A stretch of DNA of 64,000 nucleotides from Candidatus Woesearchaeota archaeon (GTDB lineage: Archaea > Nanobdellota > Nanobdellia > Woesearchaeales > GW2011-AR4): the NCBI GenBank assembly GCA_018303655.1, contig JAGVXT010000023.1:30394-94393 (forward strand). The letters run 5' to 3'. The stretch's first letter is position 1; every line of letters starts with the position of its first letter. This document shows, one piece after another, positions 4,210 through 37,196 of the stretch. A program made the position numbers and the translations under genes. The notes under the pieces are model-generated. The model saw nothing but the letters and a program-made list of their open reading frames with translations, was not told the origin of the DNA and did not search any database.

Positions 4210-4315
4210 AGCAAATATGTATGCTTTCCTGATTTAAAAATTTAATGTTTAGTGTTGGCATTGTGGTTACAAAGATTTATAAATCAGTAAATAACTGTGC
4301 ATGAAGGTGGTTTTG

Positions 4316-4870: not shown

Positions 4871-4871
4871 G

Positions 4872-5768: not shown

Positions 5769-6116
5769 ATATGAGTCAATTCCTTCAATCTGCCTGAGCT
5801 TTGTGTGCTTAAATAAGAATTCTCTGAATTTATTATTTATTTTTACGCCATGTTTTTGTAAGTTAGAGTTTAATTTTGAGTAAAGCTGCCTGCCTTCCCT
5901 ATCCAAATCAGTGAGAATGATGCACTCGTCATTGGAACCGGCAACATCTTCAACAATCTGGAAAAGGGGCTTTTTATTCAGTTCGATAACATTGCTAATG
6001 CCCAGTTTCTGCAAGGCTGTCCTGTCTTTTTTTCCTTCCACGATTATCAACGTGTTGTTTTCTCTGATTTTTTCAATGAAACTTTGAATCTCCCCTGTTT
6101 TTTGGCTCATTGCCAT
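5754..6116 (-). CDS. small stand-alone Toprim-domain protein
   Basis: IIVEGKKDRTAL and ILTDLDREGRQL acidic Toprim motifs in a 120-aa protein. Confidence 0.7.
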   Translation of the reverse strand: MAMSQKTGEIQSFIEKIRENNTLIIVEGKKDRTALQKLGISNVIELNKKPLFQIVEDVAGSNDECIILTDLDREGRQLYSKLNSNLQKHGVKINNKFREFLFKHTKLRQIEGIDSYLESF

Positions 6117-6187
6117 TTTAAAGATGCTTGACAGCTTTTAAATATTTTCATCAAAAACCTTAAATAACAAAAAGCGTTCCTAAAATC

Positions 6188-9937: not shown

Positions 9938-9987
9938 TTATACTTCAAAGTTTTCAAAGAAAATAAAAACTTTGGAGGTTGATAAAA

Positions 9988-11130
9988 ATGGATTTAGTAA
10001 AACTTAAACAGTTGGATGAAGAAAAGACTCGGGAATTTCATTTATGGGATTTTCAAGATAACTTATTTATTCTTTTGGACAAAGAAGCTAATGACAGATT
10101 TTTCAAAATAATGTATAATCAATTCGGAACTCAACAAGAGTTTGCTAAATTTTTAGGACTATGGAGACAAGAGGTAAATAAATATCATAAACAATTACTT
10201 AAAGACAATGGAAGATATTATCCAGTTTACTTCCCTATTAGATTGTTCAAAAAATGTGTGCCTATTTTAGATAAAGAGTTTATTTGTTATCTAGAACAAA
10301 ATGTATCAGAAATAAGGGCAAGGGTTGGACTAAGTGTCTATAACCCAAAACTTCCAATAAGAGAATCTCAAGAAGTTTATCGAATATTAGCCCACATAAT
10401 AGCAGATGGTTCTGCGAGCAAAGGTAAAACTCCGTACTATGCTAATACTTGTAAGCAGTTAAGAGAACAATTTAAAAAAGACTTAGCAATTTTTGGAGAG
10501 ATGAAAATTTATGAGAGAAAGCCACAAGTAACTGAATTAGTGTTTTTTCCTAAAGTTGTTACAGATTTATTAGCTTCATTGTTTGATATTCAATTTACCT
10601 ATCCAAATAGAATTCCAAAACTTATATTTACAGCTTCAGAAGATTTAAAAAAAAATTTCTTGCAAGCTCTATTTGACGATGAAGGTACAATTTCTGCTCA
10701 ATTAGCTTTAACTATACACAACGTCAGGATAATGGAAGAAATAAAATCCTTGATTATTTCTTTAGGTATAAATGTTAGTAAAGTTATGGTGTATTATTAT
10801 TCTCACAAAACAAATAAAGTATATTTTCAAATTTCCAAGAAAGATTACGAATTGTTTCAAAAGAAAATAGGTTTTAGCCATCCAGAAAAAGCTAAAAAAT
10901 TGGAATTAGCAATAAGAACTCAAAATAGAGAACAAAGGACAAGAAATCCAAATTATATCGAGCAAGAAATTATAAAAATTTTAGAAATGAAGCCTTCACC
11001 CACAATGGAATTGGCTAATAAACTTATGTTAACAATAATGGGAATTAAACCACATCTTGACAGAATGCTTGAAGAAGGCTTAATAATCAAAAGAGGTTAT
11101 AAGAATAAGGTTATTTGGGATATTGCCTAA
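9988..11130 (+). CDS. free-standing double-motif LAGLIDADG homing-endonuclease-like protein with C-terminal winged-helix
   Basis: Motif 1 LAHIIADGSAS and motif 2 LQALFDDEGTI. GGAGG Shine-Dalgarno 9 nt before the ATG at 9988. Visibly more AT-rich than its neighbours. Confidence 0.75.
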   Translation: MDLVKLKQLDEEKTREFHLWDFQDNLFILLDKEANDRFFKIMYNQFGTQQEFAKFLGLWRQEVNKYHKQLLKDNGRYYPVYFPIRLFKKCVPILDKEFICYLEQNVSEIRARVGLSVYNPKLPIRESQEVYRILAHIIADGSASKGKTPYYANTCKQLREQFKKDLAIFGEMKIYERKPQVTELVFFPKVVTDLLASLFDIQFTYPNRIPKLIFTASEDLKKNFLQALFDDEGTISAQLALTIHNVRIMEEIKSLIISLGINVSKVMVYYYSHKTNKVYFQISKKDYELFQKKIGFSHPEKAKKLELAIRTQNREQRTRNPNYIEQEIIKILEMKPSPTMELANKLMLTIMGIKPHLDRMLEEGLIIKRGYKNKVIWDIA

Positions 11131-11185
11131 AATTCTGTTACTACTTACCAAAACTTATTTAAACAAAACTTCTATCTTCTGTTTT

Positions 11186-12076
11186 ATGGAAAAGGCCTTG
11201 GAAACAAGGGAAAGGATTGTTGAAATTGTAAAGCAAAAAGGCCCTGTGCTGCCTGTCCATATTTCAAAAGAGATAGGCAGTGATATTCTGATGGCAAGCG
11301 CGCACCTTGCAGAGCTCACTGCAAGCAAAAGGCTTAAGATTTCAACAATAAAGGTAGGAGGGTCTCCTTTGTATTATCTTCAAGGACAGGAAGAAATGCT
11401 GCAGAAGTTCATAGGCAGCATGAATGACAAGGAGAAAAAGGCATTTGACTTGTTAAGCCAAAGCAAGATATTGAGGGATGCTGAGCAGGAGCCTGTGGTA
11501 AGAGTTGCATTGCGCGAAATCAAGGACTTTGCAATTCCATTGAATGTCACGCATAACAACAACAAAGAAATGTTTTGGAAATGGTACTTGGCAAATAATG
11601 AAGAAGCTGAAGGCCTTATAAAGCAAAAATTGCAGATTCTGGAAAAACCGATAGAAAGAAAGGTTGAGCAAGAAACAATAAAAAGACAGGAAGAAAAACC
11701 AATACAACTAACCCAAAAACAAACAAAAGAAAAAACAACCAAGAAATACAAGCCAAGGGACAAGGAAGACAATTTTTTAAAGGACATTATGAGATTCTTT
11801 GAAAAAAACAGGATAAATGTAATAAGCAGCGAGATAATAAAAAGGGATTCGGAAATAGACTTTTTGGTTGAACTGCCAAGTGTAGTGGGAAACCTGCAGT
11901 ATTACTGCAAGGCAAGAAACAAGAAAAAAATCAGCGATTCTGATTTAAGCAACGCATATGTCAAAGGCCAGTTCAAGAAACTGCCTGTGATTGTTCTTTC
12001 TCCTGGAGAGTTGTCATCAAAAGCGCAGGAAATACTGGCAAAAGAATTAAACAATATAACGTTCAAGAAAATATAA
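11186..12076 (+). CDS. winged-helix DNA-binding protein with C-terminal PD-(D/E)XK-like domain (function unknown)
   Basis: Two wH-like segments (IVEIVKQKGPVLPVHISKEIG..., KKAFDLLSQSKILRD), a Lys-rich linker, and a C-terminal EIDFLVE...YYCKARNKKK block. Start set at the ATG at 11186. Confidence 0.4.
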   Translation: MEKALETRERIVEIVKQKGPVLPVHISKEIGSDILMASAHLAELTASKRLKISTIKVGGSPLYYLQGQEEMLQKFIGSMNDKEKKAFDLLSQSKILRDAEQEPVVRVALREIKDFAIPLNVTHNNNKEMFWKWYLANNEEAEGLIKQKLQILEKPIERKVEQETIKRQEEKPIQLTQKQTKEKTTKKYKPRDKEDNFLKDIMRFFEKNRINVISSEIIKRDSEIDFLVELPSVVGNLQYYCKARNKKKISDSDLSNAYVKGQFKKLPVIVLSPGELSSKAQEILAKELNNITFKKI

Positions 12077-16968: not shown

Positions 16969-17913
16969 TTAGGCGTTGAATTTTCCATATTCCATTACTA
17001 TAAGGCCATCAGCATATATTGTGGGATTTTTAATAACAACATCAATATGAAAAGGCACATCAACTTTGCCGCCAAAATGCCTGTTGTTGCCAAATGCAAT
17101 ATGGCAAGTGCTGGTAACCTTCTCGTCCTCTAAAACATTTCCTGTTATCTTTGCCTTACAGTTTGTTCCAATTCCAAGCTCGGCAACGTTCTTATATAAT
17201 TTGTTTTTTAATGATTTTTTGAATTGATTTGCGGTTTTTCCTCCAATAATCTTTGTGATAAATCCGTTTTTGACAATAATTTGAATAGTTTTATCGACTT
17301 TTCCAATGCCGCCTACGCTTGCATCAACTACGATTGTGCCGTTTGTTTTGTTTTCCAAAGGCGCAATAAAAATCTCGCCTGCAGGTAGATTTCCAAAAGC
17401 CCCTTTTTTTGTGTAAATCCCGTAGTCACTAACCCATTTTCTTCTCTTTGTATAAAACTCAACATTTGTTCCTTTTTTTGTTGTTATTTTTATTATATTT
17501 TTGTTTTCTAATTTTTTAATGAGTTTTTCGTTAATTATTTTTATTTTATTGAAATCAACATTTAATGCCCTTTTCATCATTTCAATTGTTATTCCAGGCA
17601 TGCTTGCTATTCTTGCCCCTTTCCTGCTTGCATTTTCCCTTGCTTTGGTATGGCTCAATGACTTTGTTGTGGGCATTAAAATAACATCATATTTCAGCAT
17701 CTCGTTCGCAATGTTTTTACTTGGTTCTGTCCCATGCGCTTCAGGTATTGGTGTCAGGACTAATTTGGATTTCTTAGTTATTTTCAATGAATTTTTATAA
17801 AGAATTTTTCCAATGTTTTTTAATTTTGAATCTGTAATAACCAAGCAACTTTCATTGCTCTTAAGATTCATGCAGTCCTTAAGAATTATTTTTGCGGATT
17901 TGTCAAGCAGCAT
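16969..17913 (-). CDS. M29-family (aminopeptidase T/S-like) aminopeptidase
   Basis: GNLPAGEIFIAP, ELGIGTN and HIAFG/HID blocks typical of the thermophilic metalloprotease M29 family. Confidence 0.65.
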   Translation of the reverse strand: MLLDKSAKIILKDCMNLKSNESCLVITDSKLKNIGKILYKNSLKITKKSKLVLTPIPEAHGTEPSKNIANEMLKYDVILMPTTKSLSHTKARENASRKGARIASMPGITIEMMKRALNVDFNKIKIINEKLIKKLENKNIIKITTKKGTNVEFYTKRRKWVSDYGIYTKKGAFGNLPAGEIFIAPLENKTNGTIVVDASVGGIGKVDKTIQIIVKNGFITKIIGGKTANQFKKSLKNKLYKNVAELGIGTNCKAKITGNVLEDEKVTSTCHIAFGNNRHFGGKVDVPFHIDVVIKNPTIYADGLIVMEYGKFNA

Positions 17914-17914
17914 T

Positions 17915-19693
17915 TTAAGCTACAAAATCCCCGTCTTTTAGAATCCAGTGCTTGTTGCCATTTTTGTCAATCCCGTATACATCAATCTTCTGCCTTGGGG
18001 CATTGAAAACAATGTCCATATGGTATTCTGTGCTCCTGTCAGGCTCGAAACCGCTTCCAAGCGCAATGTGCATCATTCTTGCTATTTTCTCGTTAACAAT
18101 AAGGTATTCGCACAATCTCGCCTTTGGGTTGGTGTTGATTGCGAACTCTCCAATTCTTTCAAAATTATTCTTTTTTAAATTGATTATTTCCTGGGGAATG
18201 CTCTTGTTCTTTTCAGCCTCAAGCAGTAGCTTCATTGCCTCGTCTTTTCTTTTTTTGATTTTATCGATGATTTCCTTTGGTCCATTTGTTATCTTATAGC
18301 TGTCACCATAGCACTCAACAACCAACGGGTTTTTTTCATTTAATGAATAGCTCTGGTCAACATGAACAACAACATCCCCCACAAAGATTCCTTTCATGTA
18401 CTCCGGAGTTGTAAATGCCTCTCCTCCTGGAATGTTGCCCATGCAGCCTGCCCTTATGCCTGTCATTTTCAAGTATTCCCTGTTTAGCTTTTCTTTTACA
18501 TCGGTATCGCTTCTTCTGACCCATCTTCTTGAGCCGTCTTCTTTTATCAATCCAACTTCAAGCTTTGTGACATATTTTTCCTTTAGCTTGCCTTCCACAT
18601 GGATGACATCGCATTTGTCCATTATATCCTTGACTTTCTGGTTTCTTGCCCTTATGTCACTCCAATCAACCAAATTCGTCTCGATAAAAATGTCAATCGG
18701 TATTGTTTCTGTAAAGGCAACCCTTGCCATTGGATCTCTTTTATCATACTTTGTTTGAGGATAGAAATCGAGCTTGTAAATCATCTGTCCGGGAGTCTGC
18801 CATCTTGTTTTTTTATTTGGAGAAGGATATCCAATAATCTCTCCAAAAAGATGCTTTCCGGGATACCCTTTTGCGCTTATTGAAAAAGACAAGTCTATGG
18901 GTTTTATTCTGTCGAGCTTCAGCAATTGTGATAATCTTTTGTATTTCTTAAATGGCCCCTCATCAATGTCCTTTGACAGCTCACATCCAAGCAATGTTGC
19001 CCTTAATTCAGAAACTCTTTCGCTTTTCTCGAGCATGGAGCCTCTAAAAGTGCAGGCATTCATTGTTGGATCCGCGGTTTTTTTTGCGGTTTGCGTCATT
19101 GCCCATATTATGGAGTAAGAGTCAAGATAATCCTCCAAAGGGTGCCCCATCAAATCTTTTGTTGGAATAAGCGTGAAGCCGATGCCTACCCTCTCGCCTT
19201 TTTTCAGAGCATATACCTCTCTCCAAAGAATTTCGGCAGTCTGCATCAGCTCTTTCATTCTGTAGTCATTAAACCACTCTGTGTGGAAAGGCAATTTTAA
19301 TGCGCCTTCAAAATTGTCTTTTCCGGCTTCAAGAATAAAATCCGGCTTTTTGAACAGTTTTCTGAATTCTCCTCTGGCTTTTTTATCAACTTCCTGAATA
19401 AATTCTCCTAAAGCCTTTGTTTTTTCATTTTTTATTCCTTTCTCCAGTTCTTCAAAGCACTGCCACACATCCTTTAGGGCTTCCAGCCCTTCTGATTCAC
19501 CATTTATCCCCACGCAGCTTACATCCGCACCTAATTCATGAAGCGCCCTTGACAAAGGCGCCAATGTGTAGAAATCATTCCTGTTGATTATATCAAATGT
19601 TATAAAGAAAGATTTGTTCTTGGCATTTTTTATTATTTTTTTATAATCGCTGACAGCAGAATTAAATTCATTTTCGTTGTATTTCATGAGCAT
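17915..19693 (-). CDS. M29-aminopeptidase-like protein with large unrecognised N-terminal region
   Basis: The C-terminal half has GNIPGGEAFTTPE, EFAINTN, HIALGSG and HMDIV blocks parallel to the neighbouring M29 gene. I do not recognise the N-terminal ~350 aa. Confidence 0.5.
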   Translation of the reverse strand: MLMKYNENEFNSAVSDYKKIIKNAKNKSFFITFDIINRNDFYTLAPLSRALHELGADVSCVGINGESEGLEALKDVWQCFEELEKGIKNEKTKALGEFIQEVDKKARGEFRKLFKKPDFILEAGKDNFEGALKLPFHTEWFNDYRMKELMQTAEILWREVYALKKGERVGIGFTLIPTKDLMGHPLEDYLDSYSIIWAMTQTAKKTADPTMNACTFRGSMLEKSERVSELRATLLGCELSKDIDEGPFKKYKRLSQLLKLDRIKPIDLSFSISAKGYPGKHLFGEIIGYPSPNKKTRWQTPGQMIYKLDFYPQTKYDKRDPMARVAFTETIPIDIFIETNLVDWSDIRARNQKVKDIMDKCDVIHVEGKLKEKYVTKLEVGLIKEDGSRRWVRRSDTDVKEKLNREYLKMTGIRAGCMGNIPGGEAFTTPEYMKGIFVGDVVVHVDQSYSLNEKNPLVVECYGDSYKITNGPKEIIDKIKKRKDEAMKLLLEAEKNKSIPQEIINLKKNNFERIGEFAINTNPKARLCEYLIVNEKIARMMHIALGSGFEPDRSTEYHMDIVFNAPRQKIDVYGIDKNGNKHWILKDGDFVA

Positions 19694-19712: not shown

Positions 19713-20948
19713 TTAAAACTTTGCACTTGAGCTGGACCTTAAATCAGGCGTCTTAAGCAGATACACAAAGCACAATGCCAGGAAAATCAAGACCATTACT
19801 AATGATATGTCGTAGCTGTACTGCACAATAAGCCAGCCGCCCAATAGGGGACCAAACAATGCAGCCAGCCTGCCGACTATTTGCAAGTAGCCAAAATACT
19901 CCCCCATCTTATCATTTGGCGTCAAGAACACAAAGAAGCTCCTTGAGGCTGCAAGAGAGCCGCCAAATGCAATGCTTCCAAGCAGCCCGGCAATCCAAAA
20001 GGCTGTCAGGTTTTTTGAAATGATGAAAGTTGATATTACTGCCATCCACGTAATAATACAAATCTTCAGCATATTCCTTGAGCCATACCTGTCAGCGAGC
20101 TTGCCAAATATCAAGGCTCCGAAGCAAGCGCCAAACGACTGCCCCATAAACAAGAATATGAAGCTCGCCAGAGTCATTCCTATTTCTTTTTTAGCATACA
20201 GGAAGAAAAAGATGTCTATGGCTGCAAGCGCATTTGAGAAAAGTGCGTAGTATACTAGGAAAGGCAGCATTCCTTTAATATCCATTAATTTCCTTAAATT
20301 CATTATAATAGAAGCGAAAGTTCTTCTAATATCCTGAATGCTTATTTTAAAGTTTTGCTTCTTTACATTCTCATCTTTTACCACAAAAAATAAAGGAAGT
20401 GAAAAGGCAAAAAAGAAAATTGCAATCACGGGGAAAACTGCATTAATGCCAGCGGCTGTTTCCATTGTGTCATTGGCAAAGTACCAAAGGGTAATATAAG
20501 CAACAAAGAGGCTTAACAGGGTGCCTATGAAGCCAGTAGCCATGCCAAGACCAGAAATTTTTCCCATTTCTTTGTCTGAAGCTAGGGTTGGCAGGAGCGC
20601 ATTGTATATGGATAAACTCAAATTATAAAGTATTGTTGCAATTCCTGCAAGAATCAGGTTCCAGAACAAGTTTGTCAATGGCAAAATTGCAATTATGATT
20701 ATCATTAAAAATGTCGGAATCACGATGAATGGCTTTCTTACATTAGTTTTATCGGAAATCGCCCCTGCAATCGGAACAATGATGCTAAAAACAAAAATTG
20801 CGATTGCGACTGTCAGCCCGATGTGAAATTCATTTCCCCCTAAGATGGAGGTAACTAAAAGCGGCCAGAATATAGTTACAAATGGTGATGTGAATGCCGT
20901 GTTGGCTAAGTCGTACAGCGCCCATGCAACAATTTTTTTACTTAACAT
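19713..20948 (-). CDS. MFS transporter (Atg22/UMF1-like)
   Basis: About 12 TM helices and an N-terminal AWALYDLANTAF motif. Confidence 0.65.
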   Translation of the reverse strand: MLSKKIVAWALYDLANTAFTSPFVTIFWPLLVTSILGGNEFHIGLTVAIAIFVFSIIVPIAGAISDKTNVRKPFIVIPTFLMIIIIAILPLTNLFWNLILAGIATILYNLSLSIYNALLPTLASDKEMGKISGLGMATGFIGTLLSLFVAYITLWYFANDTMETAAGINAVFPVIAIFFFAFSLPLFFVVKDENVKKQNFKISIQDIRRTFASIIMNLRKLMDIKGMLPFLVYYALFSNALAAIDIFFFLYAKKEIGMTLASFIFLFMGQSFGACFGALIFGKLADRYGSRNMLKICIITWMAVISTFIISKNLTAFWIAGLLGSIAFGGSLAASRSFFVFLTPNDKMGEYFGYLQIVGRLAALFGPLLGGWLIVQYSYDISLVMVLIFLALCFVYLLKTPDLRSSSSAKF

Positions 20949-20953
20949 TTTCC

Positions 20954-21346
20954 CTAGCTTTTTCCAGTTCTCTTGCCTTTATCGGCAATCAAAAACACTG
21001 CCGTCGCAATTGCATAACTGCGGTCGTGGCTTATGCTCAAATCACAGCTTAACATTTTTAAATTATTTTTTAAAAATGGCTTCTGAATCCGTAAAACTGG
21101 TTTTTCCCCGCTTAATTTTTGTATTAAAATATCATGCCATCTTAATTGGTTGAACACCTTCTTACAGCTTTCTTTTGCAGCAAACAATCCAGCCAAGGTT
21201 TCAGGTTTCGCGTTCCTAATCTCACTCTCATGGAATATCTTATGCAGAGGCTCTCTGCCCAAATTTTTGAATCTCTTGATTTCTACAATATCGCAGCCAA
21301 TCCTTATATTTAAGCCTCCGATCTTGGAATTATTATGGATTGCCAT
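20954..21346 (-). CDS. acpS: 4-prime-phosphopantetheinyl transferase (holo-ACP synthase type)
   Basis: GCDIVEIKRF, LFAAKESCKKV and SISHDRSYAIA motifs. Start set at the ATG at 21346, 4 nt after the upstream stop; the track start at 21376 is an alternative. Confidence 0.75.
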   Translation of the reverse strand: MAIHNNSKIGGLNIRIGCDIVEIKRFKNLGREPLHKIFHESEIRNAKPETLAGLFAAKESCKKVFNQLRWHDILIQKLSGEKPVLRIQKPFLKNNLKMLSCDLSISHDRSYAIATAVFLIADKGKRTGKS

Positions 21347-21350
21347 TGAA

Positions 21351-23720
21351 TCACAATTCCCCAACTTTTTGCTCAAGAATTCTTGCTATTTCCTTATATG
21401 GCTTGTTGGTTATTTCACTTGGGTCAATCAACTTCCCAAAAGTAACGCTTGTTTTTCCAAATTTAGGTATTGTTTTTCCTATTGGGAGGACTTCAAAGAG
21501 GCCTTTTAGCCTTACTGGCACTATGGGGATTTTCATGCTTGTTACTATAAGTCCCACTCCACTTTTAAATTCGTGTATTTTACCGTCCAATGTCCTCTTC
21601 CCTTCGGGGAAAAATATTACAGAAAATTTCCTGTCCATCATCTCACCCATAAAATCCATACTTTCATCTATTCCGATAGTGGCTCCAAATGGGAAGGCAT
21701 TATATGAAAAGATACTGTAGTAGCCCAGCATTTTTTTCAAATTCCTCTTAATAAATCCCTTGACTCCAATGCCAAATACAACCACGCCATCTGCTGCAAC
21801 TGCCAAAGGGATTTTAATGTGTTTAATCATTAAAGGCACATCGAATGCACTTTGGTGGTTGCTTACAAATATTACAGGATATTTTATGCCTTCGAGATTA
21901 TCAAGCCCAAAATATTGCGTTTTGGTAAAAAATCTGGCTATTGGAAAAACGAGCAACTTTTGGTAAACTTTCCTTAACACCTCAAACAATCTCGTAGTAG
22001 GCCAAGATCGGAACTTTATGCGATAAACAACTCTTTGGTTTGTGAGCTTTTCAAGATCAAAAACTGTTGTATTTTGGTCCAATTTCATTTCATCTATCTC
22101 GACATCAAAATGATTTTCCAGCTCTGTAATGAGTTCAATCCTCTTTAGAGAGTCCATGCCGATATCAACAAGATTGGAACTCTGGTTGATTTTTTTACCC
22201 GGCACGAGTATCTGATCTATGATTTTGAACAGTTTCTTTTCATACGAGAATTTTTCCAATGCTGCCCTATTGCTGCCTAGTTCCTTCATTAATATAAACT
22301 TTTTAACCTTGCCAGTTGGAGTTTTTGGAAATTCATTTTTCCAAACAGTATAACCTGCAATTTTCTGATGACTTAGCAATTTCTCATTCGCCTGCTTTAT
22401 TATTTCCTTAGGGTTTTTTCCCTCTTCAAGGATTAAGATTGCTTGCACTTTATTGTCTTTTTGGACAACACAGCTTTCCTTCACGCCATTTATTGAATTG
22501 AGTACAGGCTCTATGTCCGAGGGATATGCCTTCAAGCCGCTTGGGGTTATGATGATATCTTTCTTGCGCTCTTTAATGTAGAGGTAATCATCCTTTATCT
22601 CGCCGACGTCGCCTGTCTTAAACCACCCATTTTCAAAAGATGCCTTTGTTTTTTCTTTGTCGAGGTAGTAGCCTATTGAAATGTTGGCTCCCTTGACTAG
22701 AATCTCTTTGTCAGGACCAAGCTTGACGCTTATCCCATAGGCTATTTTGCCGGCACTTCCAGTTCTTGATGCGAAAGGCGCATTGATGCTGACAACAGCG
22801 GCTGTCTCTGTCAAACCATACCCTTGCAGCACAAAAATATATTTCCTCTTCCACCACTTTTCTACCTCGGGTTCCAGGGCAGCGCCTCCCACGCCTATAA
22901 TCCTAAATTGAATTCCAAGATTGCATGCAACACACTTGTCTTCCAAATGTTCTCTCAGATTTGCCAAAATTCCCGGCACAAAGATTGCTGCGTGGATTCT
23001 TTTGTTTCTTATAAGGGCAATCAATTTTCTAGGCTGTACCGTATCGGTAAAGAAAACGTTATAGCCAAAATGAAGAGGCAAAAACAAACCCATTATTTGT
23101 GCAAATATATGGCTTAGCGGCAGAACATTCAGAAATCTCAAGTGCAGCCTTATATTGATTGTTTTTACAGCAACCTGCACAGCCGTATAAATGTTGTCAT
23201 GGGTTAATATAACACCTTTTGGGTCTCCTGTTGTGCCAGAGGTGTATTGTATTTCAATGATATCATTTGGCTTAATTTCAGGATATGGGATTTCTTTAAA
23301 TACTCCATCGTCTAAGTGGTTTTCAAGCTCTTCCAAAAGATAGCTCTTTACATTTCTGATTGAATGATTGATGAATTCTCTTTGAAAAATTGCCTTTGCG
23401 TTAACCTGATTGTTTATTTTTTTAACGAGCTTTTTATCTGACATAACATCAAGCGGCACCACAATAATTCCAGACAGGATGCATGCCAAATATACTACAA
23501 CCCACTCTATTGAGCTGTATCCCAGAATTATTATTTTATCTCCTTTTTTTATTTTGTTATTGTCAAGAAAAATCCTTAGTTTTTGGATTTTTCCATGTAA
23601 CTCATTGCCGCTGACATGCCTTGTCCTATATCCTATTTTTTGGCTGTACAGCGTCCTTTGGGTGTTTGATGATATGGCTTTCAGAATAAGCTCTTGCAGA
23701 GGGGAAAGCTTTTGACTCAT
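21351..23720 (-). CDS. tri-domain protein: acyl-AMP ligase / carrier protein / PlsC-type acyltransferase
   Basis: Adenylation motifs YTSGTTGDPKG, GYGLTETA, WFKTGD, PKTPTGKVKK (aa ~60-480). Carrier motif GMDSLKRIEL with Ser523. Acyltransferase HX4D NHQSAFD (aa 621-627), FPEGKRT, IPIVPV. Confidence 0.85.
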   Translation of the reverse strand: MSQKLSPLQELILKAISSNTQRTLYSQKIGYRTRHVSGNELHGKIQKLRIFLDNNKIKKGDKIIILGYSSIEWVVVYLACILSGIIVVPLDVMSDKKLVKKINNQVNAKAIFQREFINHSIRNVKSYLLEELENHLDDGVFKEIPYPEIKPNDIIEIQYTSGTTGDPKGVILTHDNIYTAVQVAVKTINIRLHLRFLNVLPLSHIFAQIMGLFLPLHFGYNVFFTDTVQPRKLIALIRNKRIHAAIFVPGILANLREHLEDKCVACNLGIQFRIIGVGGAALEPEVEKWWKRKYIFVLQGYGLTETAAVVSINAPFASRTGSAGKIAYGISVKLGPDKEILVKGANISIGYYLDKEKTKASFENGWFKTGDVGEIKDDYLYIKERKKDIIITPSGLKAYPSDIEPVLNSINGVKESCVVQKDNKVQAILILEEGKNPKEIIKQANEKLLSHQKIAGYTVWKNEFPKTPTGKVKKFILMKELGSNRAALEKFSYEKKLFKIIDQILVPGKKINQSSNLVDIGMDSLKRIELITELENHFDVEIDEMKLDQNTTVFDLEKLTNQRVVYRIKFRSWPTTRLFEVLRKVYQKLLVFPIARFFTKTQYFGLDNLEGIKYPVIFVSNHQSAFDVPLMIKHIKIPLAVAADGVVVFGIGVKGFIKRNLKKMLGYYSIFSYNAFPFGATIGIDESMDFMGEMMDRKFSVIFFPEGKRTLDGKIHEFKSGVGLIVTSMKIPIVPVRLKGLFEVLPIGKTIPKFGKTSVTFGKLIDPSEITNKPYKEIARILEQKVGEL

Positions 23721-29290: not shown

Positions 29291-30253
29291 ATGGAACAAA
29301 ATAGCGCTCTGTGGACCGAGAAGTACAGGCCATCAGATTTCTCTGATATAAAAGGCCAGAAAGAGATAGTCAAAAGAGTCAAGGCTTTTGTGGAGCAGCA
29401 AAACCTGCCACACTTGCTTTTTGCAGGGCCTGCAGGTGTTGGAAAAACAAGTTTGTCTTTGGTGATAGCAAAAAAGCTATTCAAGGACCTATGGAGGCAG
29501 AATTTTCTTGAATTAAACGCTAGTGATGAAAGGGGAATTGACATAATAAGAAACAAGGTAAAAGACTTTGCAAGGACAAGGGCAATTGGAAATGTGCCGT
29601 TCAAGATAATTTATTTGGATGAATGTGATGCCCTGACAAGAGAGGCGCAGCAGGCATTGAGAAGGACAATGGAAAACTACACTCAAACGTGCAGGTTTGT
29701 TCTTTCTGCAAACTATTCATCAAAAATAATCGAGCCTATACAAAGCAGGTGCGTTGTCTTCAGGTTCAAGCAGCTGGATAAGAAAGATATCATAGAAATC
29801 ATTGAAAAAATCTCAAAGGATGAAAAATTAAAAATTGATGAAAAAGCCAAAGAAGCCTTGTATGAGATATGCGAAGGCGACTGCAGAAGGCTTGAAAACA
29901 TACTGCAAAGCTCGGCTGCAATAGCCGACCACATAACAGAAGATTTGATTCATTCAATGGCTTCTGTTGCCAAGCCAAAGGAGATAAAACAAGTTTTGGA
30001 GCTTGCATTAATCAATAATTTTATTGAAGCCAGAAACAAGCTGCTGGACTTGATGCTGAGCTATGGATTAGCGGGCATTGACATAATAAAGCAGATTCAA
30101 AAGGAGATATTGGAGCTAAACATTGACAACAAAGCCAAGATGATTCTCATAGAGAAGTGCGGTGAAATAGAGTTCAGAATGACAGAAGGATCTGATGAGT
30201 TTGTCCAGTTAGAGGCTTTGCTAAGCCAGTTTGCATTGGCCGGGAACAGCTAA
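29291..30253 (+). CDS. rfcS: replication factor C small subunit
   Basis: WTEKYRP, GPAGVGKT, YLDECDAL, SRC motif (IQSRCVVFRF). No intein. Confidence 0.9.
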   Translation: MEQNSALWTEKYRPSDFSDIKGQKEIVKRVKAFVEQQNLPHLLFAGPAGVGKTSLSLVIAKKLFKDLWRQNFLELNASDERGIDIIRNKVKDFARTRAIGNVPFKIIYLDECDALTREAQQALRRTMENYTQTCRFVLSANYSSKIIEPIQSRCVVFRFKQLDKKDIIEIIEKISKDEKLKIDEKAKEALYEICEGDCRRLENILQSSAAIADHITEDLIHSMASVAKPKEIKQVLELALINNFIEARNKLLDLMLSYGLAGIDIIKQIQKEILELNIDNKAKMILIEKCGEIEFRMTEGSDEFVQLEALLSQFALAGNS

Positions 30254-31296
30254 GAAGCAACTCCGCCTTCTGTTGCCAAATGCTTTACAAGAACCTTAGT
30301 TTCTTTATTGTCAAGGACATTATATAAAAGCCTTATGCCAACAGTTTTCTCCAAGTCAAGCCTGTCTGTTGCCAAGTCGGCTGTGCAGGTTATTGTTCTC
30401 TTGCCGCTTACTAATTTGACAACTCCCTTATGACCAGCATCTAGACCACCGCATTTGGGGTTTGAAAAAACCGGATCAACTGGCATCTCAAGGATTTCAA
30501 CGCCAACATTGCTTTCGCGCTCCCTTCTTGCCCTTGGGTCGCGAGGGCATCCAGTGTCAAAGCTGGATGGCTTGCTTTCCTGCTTGTCCCAGAATATGTC
30601 CACATTGCCGCTCAAGCTGATGTCAAAGCTGAAAGAAAGCTTGTCCTTACCTACCACAGTCTGCCTGAAATTGCTTACTTGCACAGGAGCTGCTGAGCTG
30701 TAGACTGTCCTGCTTGATGTAGGCTTGCAAAGGCTGTCGTCCCTTACATTTATCATATCCTTTAATACACAAACCTTTGTATTTGCCTCTGTCTTGTAAT
30801 GGTAGCAGGCATCTGCCCTGAAAGTGAATTCTGTGTTGCCGCTGAATTTTCTTGGATTAAAAAAGGCGCCTGTTCCGCCTTTTGGGAATGTCGCGAATGT
30901 TGTTGTACCATCCACAATGTTGCCCTCTGCATCCCTCTTTTTTGCATCCAAAAGGTCTTCTGGCTGCTGGTCTTTCAAGTCTTCAAAATTTTTGCCAAAA
31001 TCGTTTGGGTCAAATCCGACAAGGTTTAGCTTTATATCATTCTTTTCAACCTTTGCTTCACCATCATTTTTCAACCTTACAATCGCATTAAATGAAAATG
31101 ACTCATCATCAGTCACTTCTGGCGGTGGTGAGTCTTTCTCAAAATTTATTGTGATTCCTGATGTTCCTCCTATGAAAGGAGTTCTAGGAGCTCCTCCTGC
31201 AGACGCTCCGCTTTTTTTGCATGCAGAAACCAAAAGAATCAGGCAAATAAGCAATGCAACAGCATAATATCTCTTGTTCATATTGCCTCTTTTCAT
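30250..31296 (-). CDS. secreted lipobox protein, paralog 3 of unrecognised family
   Basis: Signal peptide ending in LLVSAC. Shares the motifs GITINF..SPP, RLKNDG, ACYHYKT..VCV, AAPVQVS, TITC and RLLYNV with the two upstream genes. Alternative ATG at 31281. Confidence 0.6.
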   Translation of the reverse strand: MKRGNMNKRYYAVALLICLILLVSACKKSGASAGGAPRTPFIGGTSGITINFEKDSPPPEVTDDESFSFNAIVRLKNDGEAKVEKNDIKLNLVGFDPNDFGKNFEDLKDQQPEDLLDAKKRDAEGNIVDGTTTFATFPKGGTGAFFNPRKFSGNTEFTFRADACYHYKTEANTKVCVLKDMINVRDDSLCKPTSSRTVYSSAAPVQVSNFRQTVVGKDKLSFSFDISLSGNVDIFWDKQESKPSSFDTGCPRDPRARRERESNVGVEILEMPVDPVFSNPKCGGLDAGHKGVVKLVSGKRTITCTADLATDRLDLEKTVGIRLLYNVLDNKETKVLVKHLATEGGVAS

Positions 31297-31343
31297 TGAG
31301 CTGTTTATTTTGATGTTGGTATATAAAGTTTTTGGTTTGATGG

Positions 31344-32423
31344 CTATTGAGGCCCGTACCATTCAGAAGAAGGTGAGCTAGTTGAAGGTGTTGACACACC
31401 ACTGCTTCCTCCCAACCCGCTTACTTCTTGCTTTATCTGAATTTTTTTTTCTATGCTGTTTCTGTAGATATATACTAAACTAATAGTCATCGGCGTTATA
31501 TATGCTGTTTTGCTTCCGTAATCTGAGCTTGGCAATTCACATATCACAAAGCCTTCTCCATTAATCAGCCTTACATCACCGCCCCTGCCTCTCGCGGCAC
31601 TGCCGCCTGTATCCGTGAATGGCCCGCATGTGAGCTCTTTGTTTCCTATTCTGACTTCCTGGAGATGTACCCTATCCACTTCTTCTCTTAATATTTTTTC
31701 GCCTGAAGGCCCGCATTTGTTAAGCATATCATACTTTATAACTTCGCCATTTCCTGCATTTTTAATCGTTATCTTAAATTGTGTTTTTGTTGCAAAGGCT
31801 TCTTCATCTATTTTTGTTATAGCTACAGGGGCGCCTTGGCTTGACAGGGAAATATCCTGCACTTGGCATACTTTCTTTTCATTTGTAGTTGAATAGGGAT
31901 TTGGATCTATGCATACTGACGGGCCGGCAACTGTCTGGTAGAAATAACAAGCTGTTGCAAGTAAAGTCGGCTCGTACTTATCCACATTTAAATTGTCGAC
32001 TTGGATAACACCTTTGAATGTTGCTATATCAAGGCCGCCATTTGGGTTTATAGTGCTTTTGCCTTCCAACGCCTTTCTGTTTGTATCTTGGATATTGGTG
32101 TCTCTGAAGTTTATAATGTTTGGATCATAACCACTTAAATAAATTTTACCATCTGGTGCTGTGCCTTCGTTTGGCTGGGGGAAGGCTCCTTTATTTCTCA
32201 TTTCCAAAACAACTTCAAAACTATTGGCATTTTCACCAGCCCCTTTTTCAACGTGTATTGTTGTGGGCGGCGCATTAGCCAGAAAATTCATAGTAATTCC
32301 TTCTGTTCCTGTTCTTATCTCCTCCAAGGATTTTTCGTTGCTTTTTTTGCCTTTGCACCCGGAAATCAGGATTAATAAAGCAATAAACAAGATAAAAACC
32401 AGCCTTTTTTTCAATTTTATCAC
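31344..32423 (-). CDS. secreted lipobox protein, paralog 2 of unrecognised family
   Basis: Signal peptide ending in LISGC. Motifs GITMNFLANAPP, EMRNKGA, ACYFYQT..VCID, KKVCQVQD, GAPVAITKI, VICE, SLVYIY. Ser/Gly-rich C-terminal tail. Confidence 0.6.
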   Translation of the reverse strand: MIKLKKRLVFILFIALLILISGCKGKKSNEKSLEEIRTGTEGITMNFLANAPPTTIHVEKGAGENANSFEVVLEMRNKGAFPQPNEGTAPDGKIYLSGYDPNIINFRDTNIQDTNRKALEGKSTINPNGGLDIATFKGVIQVDNLNVDKYEPTLLATACYFYQTVAGPSVCIDPNPYSTTNEKKVCQVQDISLSSQGAPVAITKIDEEAFATKTQFKITIKNAGNGEVIKYDMLNKCGPSGEKILREEVDRVHLQEVRIGNKELTCGPFTDTGGSAARGRGGDVRLINGEGFVICELPSSDYGSKTAYITPMTISLVYIYRNSIEKKIQIKQEVSGLGGSSGVSTPSTSSPSSEWYGPQ

Positions 32424-32462
32424 TCTTTGCTCAAAACTTGGTGTTTTTGTATATAAAACTTT

Positions 32463-33467
32463 TTATCTTGCTGTTTTTTGTGTTAAGTAACTGGCTGAGA
32501 TTGATTGTGTATATCCATAAGTCATGTCTATCCTGAGTGGCTTTAGAAACGGGTCCTGGTTGTTTTGGATTCCTTCCTTGAAAGCGCACCTTATAATGTC
32601 TTTTTTGTCTTTAAGTTTTACATAGCCTTGTTTTTCTTTGTTGCCTTTTTCTTTTGGCTCGCAGTCAAGCTCTTCTCCCAGACCTGTGCCTGGGAAAAAT
32701 GCCTTTACGGTTATTGTGTTGAACTTGTCGCTGCTTACTTTTCCCTGTGTGCAGAATTCTTTTACAGCATCGTTCTTTATAACAATGCCTGTTCCCTTAT
32801 TCTCAACATAAATCAAAAATTGGGGAGTTATTTTTCCGGAATCCTGGCTTGGAAGCATCTGGACTTCTATTTTGCTTATTGCAACCGGAGCGCCCTGGCC
32901 GTTTGCAAATGCCAAGTCCTGCAGTTTGCATACTTTTTTTCCAGGCCTTAAATTGTTTGGATCTGTGTCCATGCAGAATGTTGCATCTAATACAGTTTTG
33001 TAAGGATAGCATAATGTTGCAATTGCAGCTGAGCTGTGGAATTCGCTTTGGGGGTCAACTTTTCCTGCCACAAGATTGTAGCTTATAACTTCCTCTCCCC
33101 CTTTTTGGTTTATTATGCTTTTTCCCTCTATGCCAAAAGAAGCGATATTGTTAAGTCCTGAAAGCGGTTGCACATTTCCGCTCGTCAGCAATTCTATATT
33201 TTTAGTGTAATCCTTTTCAAATCCAATGGATATAAACGCTGCATTGCTTTTTATGTCGGCAGCCCCGGAATTTCTTACTTTTACCACAACAGGAAACTTG
33301 TCGCCTTCGAAAATTCTTTGAGGCGGGGTGTTCTTGAGGAACTCCATTTTTAGTCCATCAAAGCCTACTCTCACATCTATGTCCTGTGTCTTTTTAGTGG
33401 AGGTTCCTGTGCAGCTTATTATAAAAATAATCAATAACGAAGTTATAAGAATTGTTTTTTTGTGCAT
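32463..33467 (-). CDS. secreted lipobox protein, paralog 1 of unrecognised family
   Basis: Signal peptide ending in FIISC. Motifs GLKMEFLKNTPP, KVRNSGA, LCYPYKT..FCMD, KKVCKLQD, GAPVAISKI, IIRCA, DMTYGY. Confidence 0.6.
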   Translation of the reverse strand: MHKKTILITSLLIIFIISCTGTSTKKTQDIDVRVGFDGLKMEFLKNTPPQRIFEGDKFPVVVKVRNSGAADIKSNAAFISIGFEKDYTKNIELLTSGNVQPLSGLNNIASFGIEGKSIINQKGGEEVISYNLVAGKVDPQSEFHSSAAIATLCYPYKTVLDATFCMDTDPNNLRPGKKVCKLQDLAFANGQGAPVAISKIEVQMLPSQDSGKITPQFLIYVENKGTGIVIKNDAVKEFCTQGKVSSDKFNTITVKAFFPGTGLGEELDCEPKEKGNKEKQGYVKLKDKKDIIRCAFKEGIQNNQDPFLKPLRIDMTYGYTQSISASYLTQKTAR

Positions 33468-33482
33468 TTTTGAAAATTATGA

Positions 33483-36400
33483 TTATTTAGTCATGTATTC
33501 TTTTGTTCCAGAATATTGTCCTTCATTGTTATATGCATAAACAGTATAAGTATATGGTTTTCCTACTATTAATTTTAGTCCGCCGTAATCAAAACAATAA
33601 TTGCCTGAGCCATCTTCTTTGATATCCTGGCAGCCTTGTACAATAACCTCTGGTTCGTCTGCAGAAAATCTTGTAACATCATAACTAATTACCTTTGGAC
33701 TAGACGGTTTATCCCAGCGAATTGTAACCACTTGGGTTTGATAATCGTAAGAAGCACGCACAATTATGGGTGATATATCTGGAATATTCTGTGTGTCTGT
33801 TTGCCCACTTTCTGATTCAATGCGTATAAACTGTACATCTTCTTTAGATAGATAATCTCCAATACCTGATTTATCAATAATTACACCATTCTTAATCTTA
33901 TTGGCTGTGTCCAAAATTTTTTCAACATAGTTTATAGTGCCTTCTACACAGCCATTAAAGCATTTATTGTAATCTTTTGAATTTGCGCATGCCTTTTGAC
34001 ACTTCGCTTCTGGTCTGCATCCCCATCCATTATATGCTCTTAATGTGGCTTTTATGTCCCTGTAGCTTAAATATTTCTGATGCCTATCTTGATATTTCCA
34101 TTTGGGGCAGAATGGCTCAAGACTTGAAGAACTTATGCCTCCTTTAGATTTCTGATATTTTTCGTTTAATAATTTTAAGCCAACTTTTATATTGCACTCT
34201 TTATTATAAATAGTTTGTCCTTTAGTGCAAATAGTTGATAAACCTTCATGAATCTTATTTACCTGCATTACACCAACGCTAGTATCATCATAACTCGTTA
34301 AAATTTTATCAGGTCCACAAGAAGTATCCTCACTTGCTTTGCAATCACTCCAATGATTTTTACCGCTTTCTGCGCAGCAATGCCTCCATCTGCTTTCAGT
34401 AAGAGTCAATGCAGAGATTAAATCCATACTCAAACCTGGGAAGTAAATGTCTGTTCCTGGTTTGAATTCTATAGCAGACTTTGTAATCCAATCAGGGACC
34501 GTTTCCACTAATTGCACAGGAAGCTGCTCAACATTAACAGTCACAGAATTCTCGAGCAGATAGTTATATCTCGCCCTAACCCTGAAATACCTTGTTGTTA
34601 TTGGTGAATCACCAAGCACTGCCGAACTTGGCTCGAACCTGCACACAAAGCTTCTGGACTTGTCTATGTCCTTGTTTAAATCCTTGAACTGCTTGCTGCC
34701 GACATCAAGCGCATACGCATTGTATTTTTCTTGAGTAGAACCTTCTCCTTCATTGGTTTGGAACAAAAAAGCGCATTCTTGATTGCACTTATCAAAAACA
34801 GTTTGGCATTCCTTTATGCAATTGTTCTTATTTTCATCAGAGCCACCTACATTGCTACAAGCTACTGTACAAGGAACTACAACATTATTAGTACATGAGC
34901 CAAAACAATCAGTTAATTCATACTTCTTAAACGGCATGCTGCAGGGGCATTCCAATTTTTCCAATTCTGTTTTTGGGTCTTCACATTTTTCAAGCTTATC
35001 GGAAGTGCCAAGTGTAATTCCGTATGGCGTCAGTAAAATTAATTCTGTTATGTTTTTTATTTTTCCTTCCCATCTTGTGATAATTTTCTTATCTTTGTCC
35101 TGAATTTCCTTTCTGTTGGTTAGTGTAATGCCTATGATCGGCTTTATGGCATAGCCTTCGCTTACTGTAACAAGAGGACCTACGCCTAAGCCGATTTCAA
35201 CAGGCCCGTTTGTGAAAACTGCTGCAGGAGTCTTGTCTTTTATCCCAAATTGTGTCAATGGATCAATTCCCTCTCTTGAACTTGCCCTGAATCTTTCCCT
35301 GTCCATAAAGTATGTTTTCAGATAAGAATCGGTGCCAAAATTATACTCTGCTGATAATGTAACTATATTAGCTCCTGCTGGTATTTTGTTTTCATCTTTT
35401 GGCAGGAACGTGCATTGGGTGTCAACTTCCTCCAATGTGAATATTGGGAATTTTATTTCTGGTATTATCTTATCTGCATATATCCTTTTACTGTCTTTCC
35501 ATCTGCTGCAGTTGAAGCTCACAATTACTGCATCTTTGTATGTTTTGCTCCTTATAGTGCCCCACACAGTAATCGGCTCGTCAGTATAAAATCTTGGGTC
35601 AGAAGCCCTTATATTGCCGAAATAGACTCCAAGGCTTTCATATCTATTTTTTTCAACGTTGCCCCTGTACAGGCCTGCTGTGGCGATGTCAAGCCTGCCT
35701 TCAATGAACCCTTTTAGGTTGGCTGTAAATGAACTGTAAAACTCTGTGAATGTTGTACCTTGTTTTGCTATGTAGGGGATGGTATTTGTTTCAAGCCCTG
35801 CAACATTTACAGTCATTATTAAAAAAAATGTTACCAATAAAATAAATGCCATCACAGGATAAGTTGCTTTTTTCTTGCCATCAATTTCATTCGATTCTTT
35901 AACATAGCAATAGGGAATTACAAATAATGTAAGCGGTGGAATAAACTTCAAAAATAAATACTCAGAATTCCATAAAAACCCATACCCAAAAAAATCAATT
36001 ATCAGAAGACTGGGCATGTAGAGATATGTTAAATAAGGTTGTGTTCTTTCTTTTTGCTTTATATAAACAAATCCAAAAAAAATGATATATATTGCATGAA
36101 GCCATGCCCTTATGTTGCCCTGCCATCCATTATTGAGCCAAAAAAATGAAAAAACAAACATTGCATAAAGCGAAGAGAAAAGCCCCGCGACTTCACCCTC
36201 CTTATAGTTTCTATCAAATTTCCATACCAACCATCCTAAAAACAAAAAAAGCAAAATCATCCCATATTGACCTAATGGTATTGAAAAACTTATGTTTAAA
36301 TAAGATGGAAAAATTTTTGGAATGAAATAATTTGATATAATAATTATGCCAAATGCGAGTATAAAAGCTCTGTATTCTTTTTCTATTATTTTAAAAACCA

Positions 36401-37091: not shown

Positions 37092-37196
37092 TCAAAATCA
37101 CCATTTTAGCCATTTTCAAAATAACAATCTCTAAAGAATTCTTCCCAAGCCACCTCTTCTTTTTTAATGGATTATGAAATAAAATAAGCATTATAA

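Follow-up and report, generated by a model that had tools for sequence, protein, structure and literature searches.

In Escherichia coli, the Aas/LplT system couples synthesis of acyl-ACP (ACP, acyl carrier protein), lysolipid flipping and re-acylation (PMC11416262), and fusions of LplT with Aas are also known (PRK06814 and PRK08633). Vibrio AasS and chlamydial AasC are ANL enzymes that supply phospholipid synthesis by charging a phosphopantetheine carrier with exogenous fatty acids, and such stand-alone acyl-ACP synthetases follow the ecological logic of host-dependent organisms (PMC6167442, PMC12208996). A multidomain arrangement is found in ElbD of Myxococcus xanthus, where a FAR1-like reductase is followed by ACS, ACP and AGPAT domains; ElbD-like proteins of other bacterial phyla mostly occur without the FAR1 domain (PMC9131029). 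Here, we describe three tightly packed genes on the minus strand (19713-23720) of a 64,000-nucleotide stretch of contig JAGVXT010000023.1 from a Candidatus Woesearchaeota archaeon (GCA_018303655.1; the whole 64-kb stretch is referred to below as the window). They encode a ligase-carrier-acyltransferase fusion, a phosphopantetheinyl transferase (PPTase) and a transporter of the major facilitator superfamily (MFS), and we consider it somewhat better than an even chance that they form a self-contained operon that salvages fatty acids and acylates glycerolipids. The features discussed are as follows.

21351..23720, minus strand: gene for the tri-domain fusion protein, 789 aa, stop codon included (from the listing of open reading frames, ORFs)
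22266..23720, minus strand: ANL fatty-acyl ligase domain of the fusion (residues 1-485)
22035..22238, minus strand: ACP-like carrier domain (residues ~495-562)
21927..22004, minus strand: basic/aromatic amphipathic helix WPTTRLFEVLRKVYQKLLVFPIARFF (residues ~573-598), ahead of the acyltransferase
21354..21926, minus strand: PlsC/AGPAT-type (LPLAT) acyltransferase domain (residues 599-789)
20954..21346, minus strand: gene for an AcpS-type 4'-phosphopantetheinyl transferase, 130 aa counted from the ATG
19713..20948, minus strand: gene for a UMF1/Atg22-like MFS transporter, 411 aa, with about 12 transmembrane (TM) segments

The fusion gene ends in TGA (21351-21353) and 4 nt (TTCA) separate it from the AcpS ATG at 21346; the AcpS stop codon (TAG, 20954-20956) is followed after 5 nt by the MFS ATG at 20948. 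The AcpS frame can be extended to a TTG at 21376, and the ATG start is the better fit to relatives. A preliminary description of this DNA, made from its letters, had reported a 789-aa protein with ligase, carrier and acyltransferase in that order, a PPTase gene 4 nt behind it and then a 12-TM MFS transporter. This layout was confirmed by ORF analysis, Pfam and a count of hydrophobic segments, and every motif that had been quoted lies where it was placed.

The operon resembles Aas/LplT in that an ANL acyl-ACP synthetase and a PlsC-family acyltransferase are joined in one polypeptide with an operon-linked MFS transporter. However, the domain order is reversed: E. coli Aas runs from acyltransferase (residues 15-137) to AMP-binding domain (233-568), whereas the archaeal protein runs from ligase through carrier to acyltransferase. 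Aas also has no PP-binding domain and uses free cellular ACP, while the window protein comes with its carrier in cis, and a separate gene provides an AcpS of its own. Sequence similarity is low (25% identity in the ligase and a 47-residue match in the acyltransferase), and although the NCBIfam Aas models match both the ligase and the acyltransferase parts, the scores of 139 and 125 bits reach about a tenth of the PRK06814/PRK08633 cut-offs (1349 and 1221). LplT and the window transporter have no detectable similarity, the latter being UMF1/Atg22-like. As far as such comparisons can tell, the operon is a functional analogue of E. coli Aas/LplT and not its orthologue. The likeness to Aas/LplT that the preliminary description drew is thus upheld as a functional analogy with a changed domain order and a built-in carrier, and falls as a statement of homology.

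With ElbD, the window protein shares the core order ACS-ACP-AGPAT. The N-terminal FAR1-like reductase is confined to ElbD, as Pfam and NCBIfam searches found no reductase or NAD-binding domain in the window protein, and none of the ElbD neighbours elbB, elbC and elbE occurs at the operon, the archaeal genes being linked to AcpS and a UMF1 MFS transporter instead. Matched by described architecture, the window protein corresponds to a FAR-less 'ElbD-like' ACS-ACP-AGPAT protein and is not an ElbD orthologue. The architecture as such is not new in databases, since ElbD-like proteins are described in bacteria, 'ElbD hits' are reported from DPANN Woesearchaeia metagenome-assembled genomes (MAGs) (PMC11868695) and bacterial fusions of domains resembling fatty acyl-AMP ligases (FAALs) with lysophospholipid acyltransferases have been mentioned (PMC8460268). 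PlsC homologues have been noted in DPANN (PMC6431249), and a 2026 survey, within the archaeal genomes that it covered, detected no LPLAT candidates (PMC13500770). In our literature search, no paper turned up that describes the operon of three genes in archaea, the AcpS dedicated to it or the UMF1 link, and a search on lipid scavenging in TM6 returned nothing usable. AasS and AasC differ from the window protein in acting on free housekeeping ACP that feeds separate PlsB/PlsC enzymes, whereas carrier and acyltransferase are here fused in cis. Thermotoga maritima PlsC (5KYM) shares fold family, HX4D and FPEG motifs with the acyltransferase domain, but the window domain falls under the equivalog cut-offs and would receive its acyl donor tethered in cis. 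Set beside these systems, the operon reads as a version of bacterial fatty-acid salvage and lysolipid acylation that has its carrier in cis, brings its own PPTase and is linked to a UMF1 transporter, and that has become fixed in a major DPANN lineage.

The ligase domain matches Pfam AMP-binding (PF00501, residues 31-352, E=1e-57), followed by a weak AMP-binding_C match just under the cut-off (residues 403-471). It carries the core motifs A3 (YTSGTTGDPKG, 159-169), A5 (GYGLTE, 300-305) and A7 (TGD, 369-371), the A8 arginine (R385) and the A10 lysine (K471; PKTPTGKVKK at 465-474), with the key positions kept in 197-199 of 199 full-length homologues, whose alignment underlies all conservation counts given here. 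Both sequence and fold comparisons placed FadD13 (3R44) and MenE as the best PDB matches (TM-score, normalised to the target, 0.77-0.85), with 4-coumarate ligases also close. FadD13 aligned in one continuous stretch (E=1.5e-42), against two stretches for the FAAL 3PBK (E=3e-19), and Vibrio AasS (8HSY) matched at E=8e-21; FAALs are recognised by a FAAL-specific insertion or helix together with a blocked CoA pocket (PMC8460268). The best NCBIfam models were those of long-chain fatty-acyl-CoA synthetases (FACS; PRK06187, E=8e-71), every one below its curated cut-off, and the amino-acid adenylation model TIGR01733 scored much lower. By these measures, the ligase groups with fatty-acyl-CoA/ACP synthetases (FadD13, MenE and AasS) and not with the amino-acid-adenylating loaders of nonribosomal peptide synthetases (NRPS), an affiliation that would have counted against the preliminary description. 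Its nearest neighbours suggest a fatty acid as the substrate.

The carrier domain matches PP-binding (PF00550, residues 506-556, E=6e-10, 39.7 bits against a cut-off of 20.8) as well as NCBIfam acyl carrier protein models. Its phosphopantetheine-attachment serine, Ser524 (nt 22149-22151), lies in GMDSLKRIEL (residues 521-530) and is kept in 199/199 homologues. Between carrier and acyltransferase, residues ~573-598 have the top helical hydrophobic moment (1.63) of the linker scanned (555-626), and the AlphaFold2 model (from an 80-sequence alignment; mean pLDDT 90.7, pTM 0.88) places a long helix at 577-598. By analogy with the N-terminal helices of PlsC in 5KYM, we propose that the 573-598 helix is a membrane-interface anchor.

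The C-terminal domain matches Acyltransferase (PF01553, residues 611-738, E=8e-14, 52 bits against a cut-off of 23), with the HX4D motif NHQSAFD at 621-627 (nt 21840-21860) and block III FPEG at 704-707 (nt 21600-21611; FPEGKRT, 704-710). T. maritima PlsC (5KYM) aligns at E=1.5e-9 with HX4D and FPEG both in register, and H622 is conserved in 199/199 homologues, D627 in 198/199 and PEG in 198/199. TIGR00530 (1-acylglycerol-3-phosphate acyltransferase) is the best specific model (E=2e-14), yet the score stays below the level of a canonical PlsC equivalog (53.4 bits versus 102.95; PRK15018, 16.4 versus 501); the Aas models PRK08633 and PRK06814 match this part as well. The catalytic residues, whose loss would have undermined the preliminary description, are intact. 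All three domains of the fusion look functional from their sequences, and the near-invariance of their catalytic residues fits selection on all three activities. A fold search with the whole model returned no solved structure with the ligase-carrier-acyltransferase architecture, its results being dominated by the ANL domain.

The second gene encodes a single ACPS domain (PF01648, E=8e-8, 32.7 bits versus 25) and exceeds the cut-off of TIGR00556 (50.7 versus 45.35 bits), while falling below that of the holo-ACP synthase equivalog TIGR00516 (49.1 versus 59.8). The motifs GCDIVEI, FAAKES.KK and SISHD are common to its relatives, and by these signatures it is an AcpS-type (group I) PPTase. To our knowledge, Archaea normally lack both ACP and AcpS, so a dedicated PPTase in the operon fits the presence of a built-in carrier there, supplying an activity otherwise missing from an archaeon. 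The window contains a second ANL enzyme, an AMP-forming acetyl-CoA synthetase (ACAS_N, AMP-binding and AMP-binding_C) at 39630..41591 on the plus strand, which indicates CoA-dependent metabolism; CoA is also the donor that AcpS needs.

The third gene product matches MFS_1 (E=6e-31) and ATG22 (PF11700, residues 45-396, E=9e-30, 104.3 bits versus 24.1), with about 12 hydrophobic segments. All of its homologues carry PF11700 and the JGI label is 'UMF1 family MFS transporter', which by sequence assigns it to the UMF1/Atg22-like family. The preliminary description had cast it as the counterpart of LplT, and here it erred: BLASTP against E. coli LplT gave nothing significant (best E 3.8), no LplT model is among its NCBIfam matches, and E. 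coli LplT lacks the ATG22 signature. The lysolipid-import step consequently rests on gene linkage and analogy. A single-sequence search of the PDB had a weak top match to 6S7V (E=3e-5), the LtaA flippase (PMC8866510). We rejected an LtaA-like lipid flippase as the identity of the transporter, the similarity being that of MFS proteins generally: a family profile ranks SV2A, NorA, an Rv1410-like transporter and GlcP higher. For bacterial and archaeal UMF1/Atg22 members we know of no established substrate, and a literature search for UMF1 substrates gave nothing usable for them.

We asked how consistently the three genes occur together in ten loci obtained by exact-protein look-up and 80 metagenomic loci, retrieved with search patterns derived from an archaeal-only alignment. 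Partner genes were detected with hidden Markov models (HMMs) built from the partner proteins, and counts are limited to non-duplicate loci flanked on each side by 2.5 kb or more. In the archaeal clade (13 loci, 39-65% identity to the window protein), AcpS is adjacent in all 13, a UMF1-type MFS gene lies within 2 kb in 12 and a membrane-anchored alpha/beta-hydrolase accompanies four. The 23 bacterial loci show AcpS in two, MFS in two and the hydrolase in one; these fractions are rough, since the search patterns were archaeal and one high-GC lineage dominates the retrieved loci. In bacteria, the fusion gene usually stands alone. Gene order and flanks vary among the archaeal loci, which means that the linkage goes beyond mere synteny, and the co-conservation that the preliminary description required holds among archaeal relatives in differing contexts. 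At two bacterial loci the MFS gene overlaps the fusion gene, and its product is 29-32% identical to the window transporter over the full length (E 1e-39 to 1e-60). AcpS adjoins the fusion gene in a TM6 genome, and AcpS linkage thereby tracks hosts expected to lack ACP machinery of their own, namely all archaeal loci and the TM6 locus. Its constant presence in archaea and at the TM6 locus, and its usual absence from other bacterial loci, fits acquisition by hosts without ACP machinery.

The neighbourhoods of relatives add further lipid-related genes. The hydrolase of archaeal relatives is membrane-anchored, has a GFSLS nucleophile motif and is homologous to esterase 5G59. It was seen at L004 (9701..10498), L005 (5072..5929), L009 (5279..6148), L015, L016, L018, L020 and L080; several shorter contigs have it besides the four loci counted above, and no counterpart is present in the 64-kb window. 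At the Omnitrophota locus L007, a TMEM164-family gene (10658..11401) adjoins the fusion and MFS pair, and in one bacterial lineage an acyl-CoA dehydrogenase gene neighbours the fusion gene. Together with a bacterial variant bearing two acyltransferase domains (P0156, below), these genes give a lipid and fatty-acid context that supports salvage. Other recurrent bacterial neighbours were mostly spurious antisense clusters (stop-to-stop ORFs on high-GC contigs), with only the acyl-CoA dehydrogenase and a metallo-beta-lactamase-fold protein looking real. A contig scan with the single protein gave, among the matches listed, only an unrelated Lachnospiraceae ANL enzyme (L001).

The fusion is not peculiar to this genome: the tri-domain architecture belongs to a large family that is frequent among bacteria as well as Woesearchaeota/Nanoarchaeota. 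It is shared by more than 100 full-length homologues, with E-values down to 0, a match that is far beyond chance. With the carrier-acyltransferase half as query, at least 148 clusters (50% identity) were recovered at E<=1e-30 and 1302 at E<=1e-10; among the best 150 matches, ~60% are proteins of 780-860 aa hit at their C-terminal end, the rest being mostly shorter and apparently truncated or carrier-acyltransferase-only. These cluster counts and lengths are what indicate the size of the family. Omnitrophota, TM6/Babeliales and Chloroflexota account for the bacterial members that carry a name, and bacterial variants include the 1115-aa P0156 (ligase-carrier-acyltransferase-acyltransferase) and the 939-aa P0175 (ligase-carrier-acyltransferase-glutaredoxin).

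Neighbour-joining (NJ) trees put the DPANN sequences into one clade, set among several deep clades of bacterial members. A core Woesearchaeota group was recovered in 199/200 bootstraps and the archaeal set together with P0069 in 200/200, but the 42 archaeal-clade sequences alone in only 62-70 of 200; we dropped strict monophyly of these 42 and speak of a well-supported, mainly archaeal clade. P0069 (L012, GCA_027452025.1) sits on a bacterial-looking contig (GC 0.67) beside an outer-membrane-factor (OEP) gene and RND efflux genes, and could represent either the donor lineage or a back-transfer from archaea to bacteria. Although the tree is unrooted and crude, one main inter-domain transfer appears likely, probably from Bacteria into the DPANN lineage, as bacterial members are more diverse and all three genes are typically bacterial; at least one further transfer is probable. 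The bacterial origin put forward in the preliminary description is plausible on these trees. Probably, an ancestor of the Woesearchaeota/Nanoarchaeota lineage acquired the operon once from Bacteria.

The same bacterial character of all three gene families would be expected if a bacterial fragment had been misjoined to archaeal DNA in assembly or binning. We consider such an artefact excluded, because the contig context is archaeal: the operon shares the 64-kb sequence with genes for ribosomal proteins L32e, S4e, L5e/L18, S5 and L6, SecY, Hef, FEN1, RFC and eRF1, in a window that also encodes a PriS-PriL primase and aminoacyl-tRNA synthetases. Its GC content (0.379) lies within the range of the window (0.328-0.424) and matches that of neighbouring bins (0.366-0.404), a base composition that does not suggest recent transfer. 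About ten genes around the operon are syntenic with a 234-kb contig of an independent Woesearchaeota assembly (GCA_016187465.1), the synteny recurs in a Logan assembly, and other archaeal family members adjoin either split archaeal RpoB and RpoH or TFIIB. Among named homologues, the nearest come from MAGs of Candidatus Woesearchaeota and Nanoarchaeota. The operon is resident, and its host is archaeal.

The genes bordering the operon (an M24 peptidase gene upstream; genes for a 592-aa protein and an M29-type protein downstream) were considered as members of the module and ruled out, since their conservation stops at the closest relative (L002/L003) and the other archaeal loci lack them. The 592-aa protein (17915..19693, minus strand), directly downstream of the operon, has a weak C-terminal match to M29 aminopeptidase as its sole match, and 1 nt downstream of its gene a 314-aa M29-type protein is encoded (16969..17913, minus strand). 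The pair is conserved in L002, a relative from Woesearchaeota, and its 313-aa partner there has a NicX match as well.

The operon seems made for activating free fatty acids on a carrier of its own and then esterifying them to a membrane lipid, which suggests that this archaeal lineage probably handles bacterial-type ester lipids. In the order of events that we infer, with its substrates, acceptor and direction of transport, AcpS would attach the phosphopantetheine arm of CoA to Ser524, yielding the holo carrier. With ATP, the ANL domain would then adenylate a free fatty acid (probably of medium or long chain) and thioesterify it to the arm of its own carrier. The carrier would hand the acyl group to the C-terminal PlsC/AGPAT-type domain, held at the cytoplasmic membrane surface by the amphipathic helix, where the His/Asp pair of HX4D would esterify it to a glycerolipid hydroxyl. 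The acceptor would most likely be a lysophospholipid or lysophosphatidic acid (LPA), and candidates could also include glycerol-3-phosphate (G3P) or an archaeal mono-ether. The UMF1-type transporter may supply the lipid substrate by flipping or import, whether of lysolipid or of fatty acid, drawn from a host or from the surroundings. Roughly one in three archaeal relatives, unlike this window, has the membrane-anchored esterase in the cluster, and that enzyme could yield both the lyso-form and the free fatty acid.

Several observations weigh against this scheme. The transporter has no specific similarity, as far as profiles and alignments indicate, to any known lipid transporter, and the yeast member of the Atg22 family is by its Pfam name a vacuolar effluxer. 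With an adjacent MFS gene at only two of 23 bacterial loci, the transporter is evidently not obligatory for the enzyme. The ligase might also make acyl-CoA, as it is closer to CoA ligases than to the CoA-rejecting FAALs. Archaeal membranes classically consist of ether lipids, which makes a physiological acceptor harder to name, and genes for glycerolipid head groups or for glycerol phosphate were not found in the 64-kb window. In vitro activity of ElbD's ACS and ACP domains is a precedent in favour of the scheme, but acyltransferase activity could not be shown for ElbD in vitro (PMC9131029). The preliminary description had assumed a general lack of lipid genes; this agrees with the window, the only scope of our check, where no other lipid genes were found, but not with published Woesearchaeota genomes, which carry other bacterial-type lipid genes, including G3P dehydrogenase and some fab genes (PMC8204110, PMC10936187).

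Those G3P dehydrogenase and fab genes (PMC8204110, PMC10936187) would suit de novo synthesis of phosphatidic acid, in which the acyltransferase acts as a G3P and/or LPA acyltransferase (GPAT/LPAAT) and the operon, instead of repairing or re-acylating imported lysolipids, replaces the PlsX/PlsY/PlsC route in a genome that lacks ACP-dependent fatty-acid synthesis, the MFS protein importing a polar precursor or fatty acid. TIGR00530 as best specific model and the alignment with PlsC 5KYM are in keeping with this, as are the tandem acyltransferases of P0156, expected for two successive acylations. However, the window protein has one acyltransferase domain only and scores far under the PlsC equivalog cut-off (53 bits versus 103), no G3P or CDP-diacylglycerol (CDP-DAG) pathway genes are linked at the loci inspected, and tight linkage to a transporter, often with an esterase too, fits salvage better; we regard de novo synthesis as unlikely, if worth keeping in mind. 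Secondary-metabolite systems, too, typically combine an adenylating domain and a carrier with a releasing transferase, their own PPTase and an MFS protein, and a small NRPS-like loading and release system could make a specialised acylated product for export, such as a surfactant, a lipoamino acid, or a sugar or polyol bearing an acyl group. The PlsC family includes enzymes acting on non-glycerophospholipid acceptors, such as OlsA, and the Atg22/UMF1 family is named after an effluxer. Such a system nevertheless seems improbable to us: the adenylating domain sides with fatty-acyl and aryl CoA ligases, with TIGR01733 far lower than the FACS models; condensation, thioesterase and tailoring genes are not linked at the loci inspected; and, unlike accessory biosynthetic clusters, the operon is near-universal in one genome-reduced archaeal clade and sits beside housekeeping genes.

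The acceptor could also be archaeal, the fatty acid being esterified to a lysolipid of the mono-ether type, such as a derivative of mono-alkyl or mono-geranylgeranylglyceryl phosphate, to give mixed ether/ester lipids. The archaeal host itself favours this idea, as do the acylation of 1-O-alkyl-G3P by AGPAT-type enzymes in eukaryotic ether-lipid synthesis and the requirement for ElbD, the nearest characterised multidomain relative, in ether-lipid formation (PMC9131029). No archaeal lipid genes are linked in the window, however. Glycerol-1-phosphate (G1P) stereochemistry would moreover differ from that of known PlsC substrates, and we hold hybrid lipids to be quite improbable. A true ElbD-type ether-lipid synthase, reducing the fatty acid and building it into an alkyl ether, would share the ACS-ACP-AGPAT core, and 'ElbD hits' are reported from Woesearchaeia MAGs (PMC11868695). 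It is very unlikely, as the protein opens with its AMP-binding domain (Pfam match at 31-352, NCBIfam match from residue 12), the searches described above gave no reductase or NAD-binding domain and elbB-, elbC- or elbE-like genes are not adjacent.

Fatty-acid salvage with glycerolipid acylation bears on a standing question, the source of membranes in DPANN archaea, which are considered unable to make their own lipids. For this the operon offers a conserved, mechanistically explicit and testable route. If the model is true, a large archaeal lineage handles bacterial-type ester lipids, with consequences for the lipid divide and for host range, be the hosts bacteria or archaea; a function would be assigned to the FAR-less ElbD-like proteins, which are uncharacterised and occur widely in TM6, Omnitrophota and further bacteria, and a lipid substrate would be suggested for UMF1/Atg22-type transporters. 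A bolder extension, which we offer tentatively and think doubtful, is that Woesearchaeota/Nanoarchaeota-type DPANN routinely build their membranes partly from ester-linked fatty-acyl glycerolipids, taken from bacterial hosts or detritus as lysolipid and free fatty acid and re-assembled by the operon, with the UMF1 MFS protein as lysolipid/fatty-acid flippase. A whole archaeal lineage would then cross the 'lipid divide' by salvage rather than synthesis, and the UMF1/Atg22 family would have its first prokaryotic substrate class. Should the acceptor prove not to be a lipid, the finding shrinks to one horizontally acquired enzyme without an assigned role.

Elsewhere in the window, a run of five consecutive genes without Pfam matches (30250..38369, minus strand) may be a surface or lipoprotein cluster. 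Three of its products (334-370 aa) have an N-terminal signal and a lipobox-like cysteine (LLVSAC, LISGC and IISC); the others are a 1202-aa polytopic membrane protein with an Arg/Glu-rich N-terminus (33483..37091) and a 390-aa N-terminally anchored protein. If these proteins are lipid-modified, their acylation could feed the lysolipid supply. A further 167-aa protein without a Pfam match (52538..53041, plus strand) carries KKGVSPLIATVLLIAFAVALG, a signal peptide of the archaeal class-III (type IV pilin-like) kind.

A transketolase in the window is split, its N- and C-terminal halves being encoded by separate plus-strand genes (42614..43459 and 43720..44661) ~19 kb from the operon, and L004, a marine relative, has this split transketolase (5127..6943) directly upstream of its fusion gene. 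The primase subunit domains PriS and PriL are joined in a single 449-aa protein (6188..7537, plus strand). A 383-aa ORF with a LAGLIDADG_3 homing-endonuclease-like domain (9979..11130, plus strand) is followed by a 317-aa ORF without a family match, and at 3364..5768 a LemA gene lies between two genes for M48-family metallopeptidases on opposite strands.

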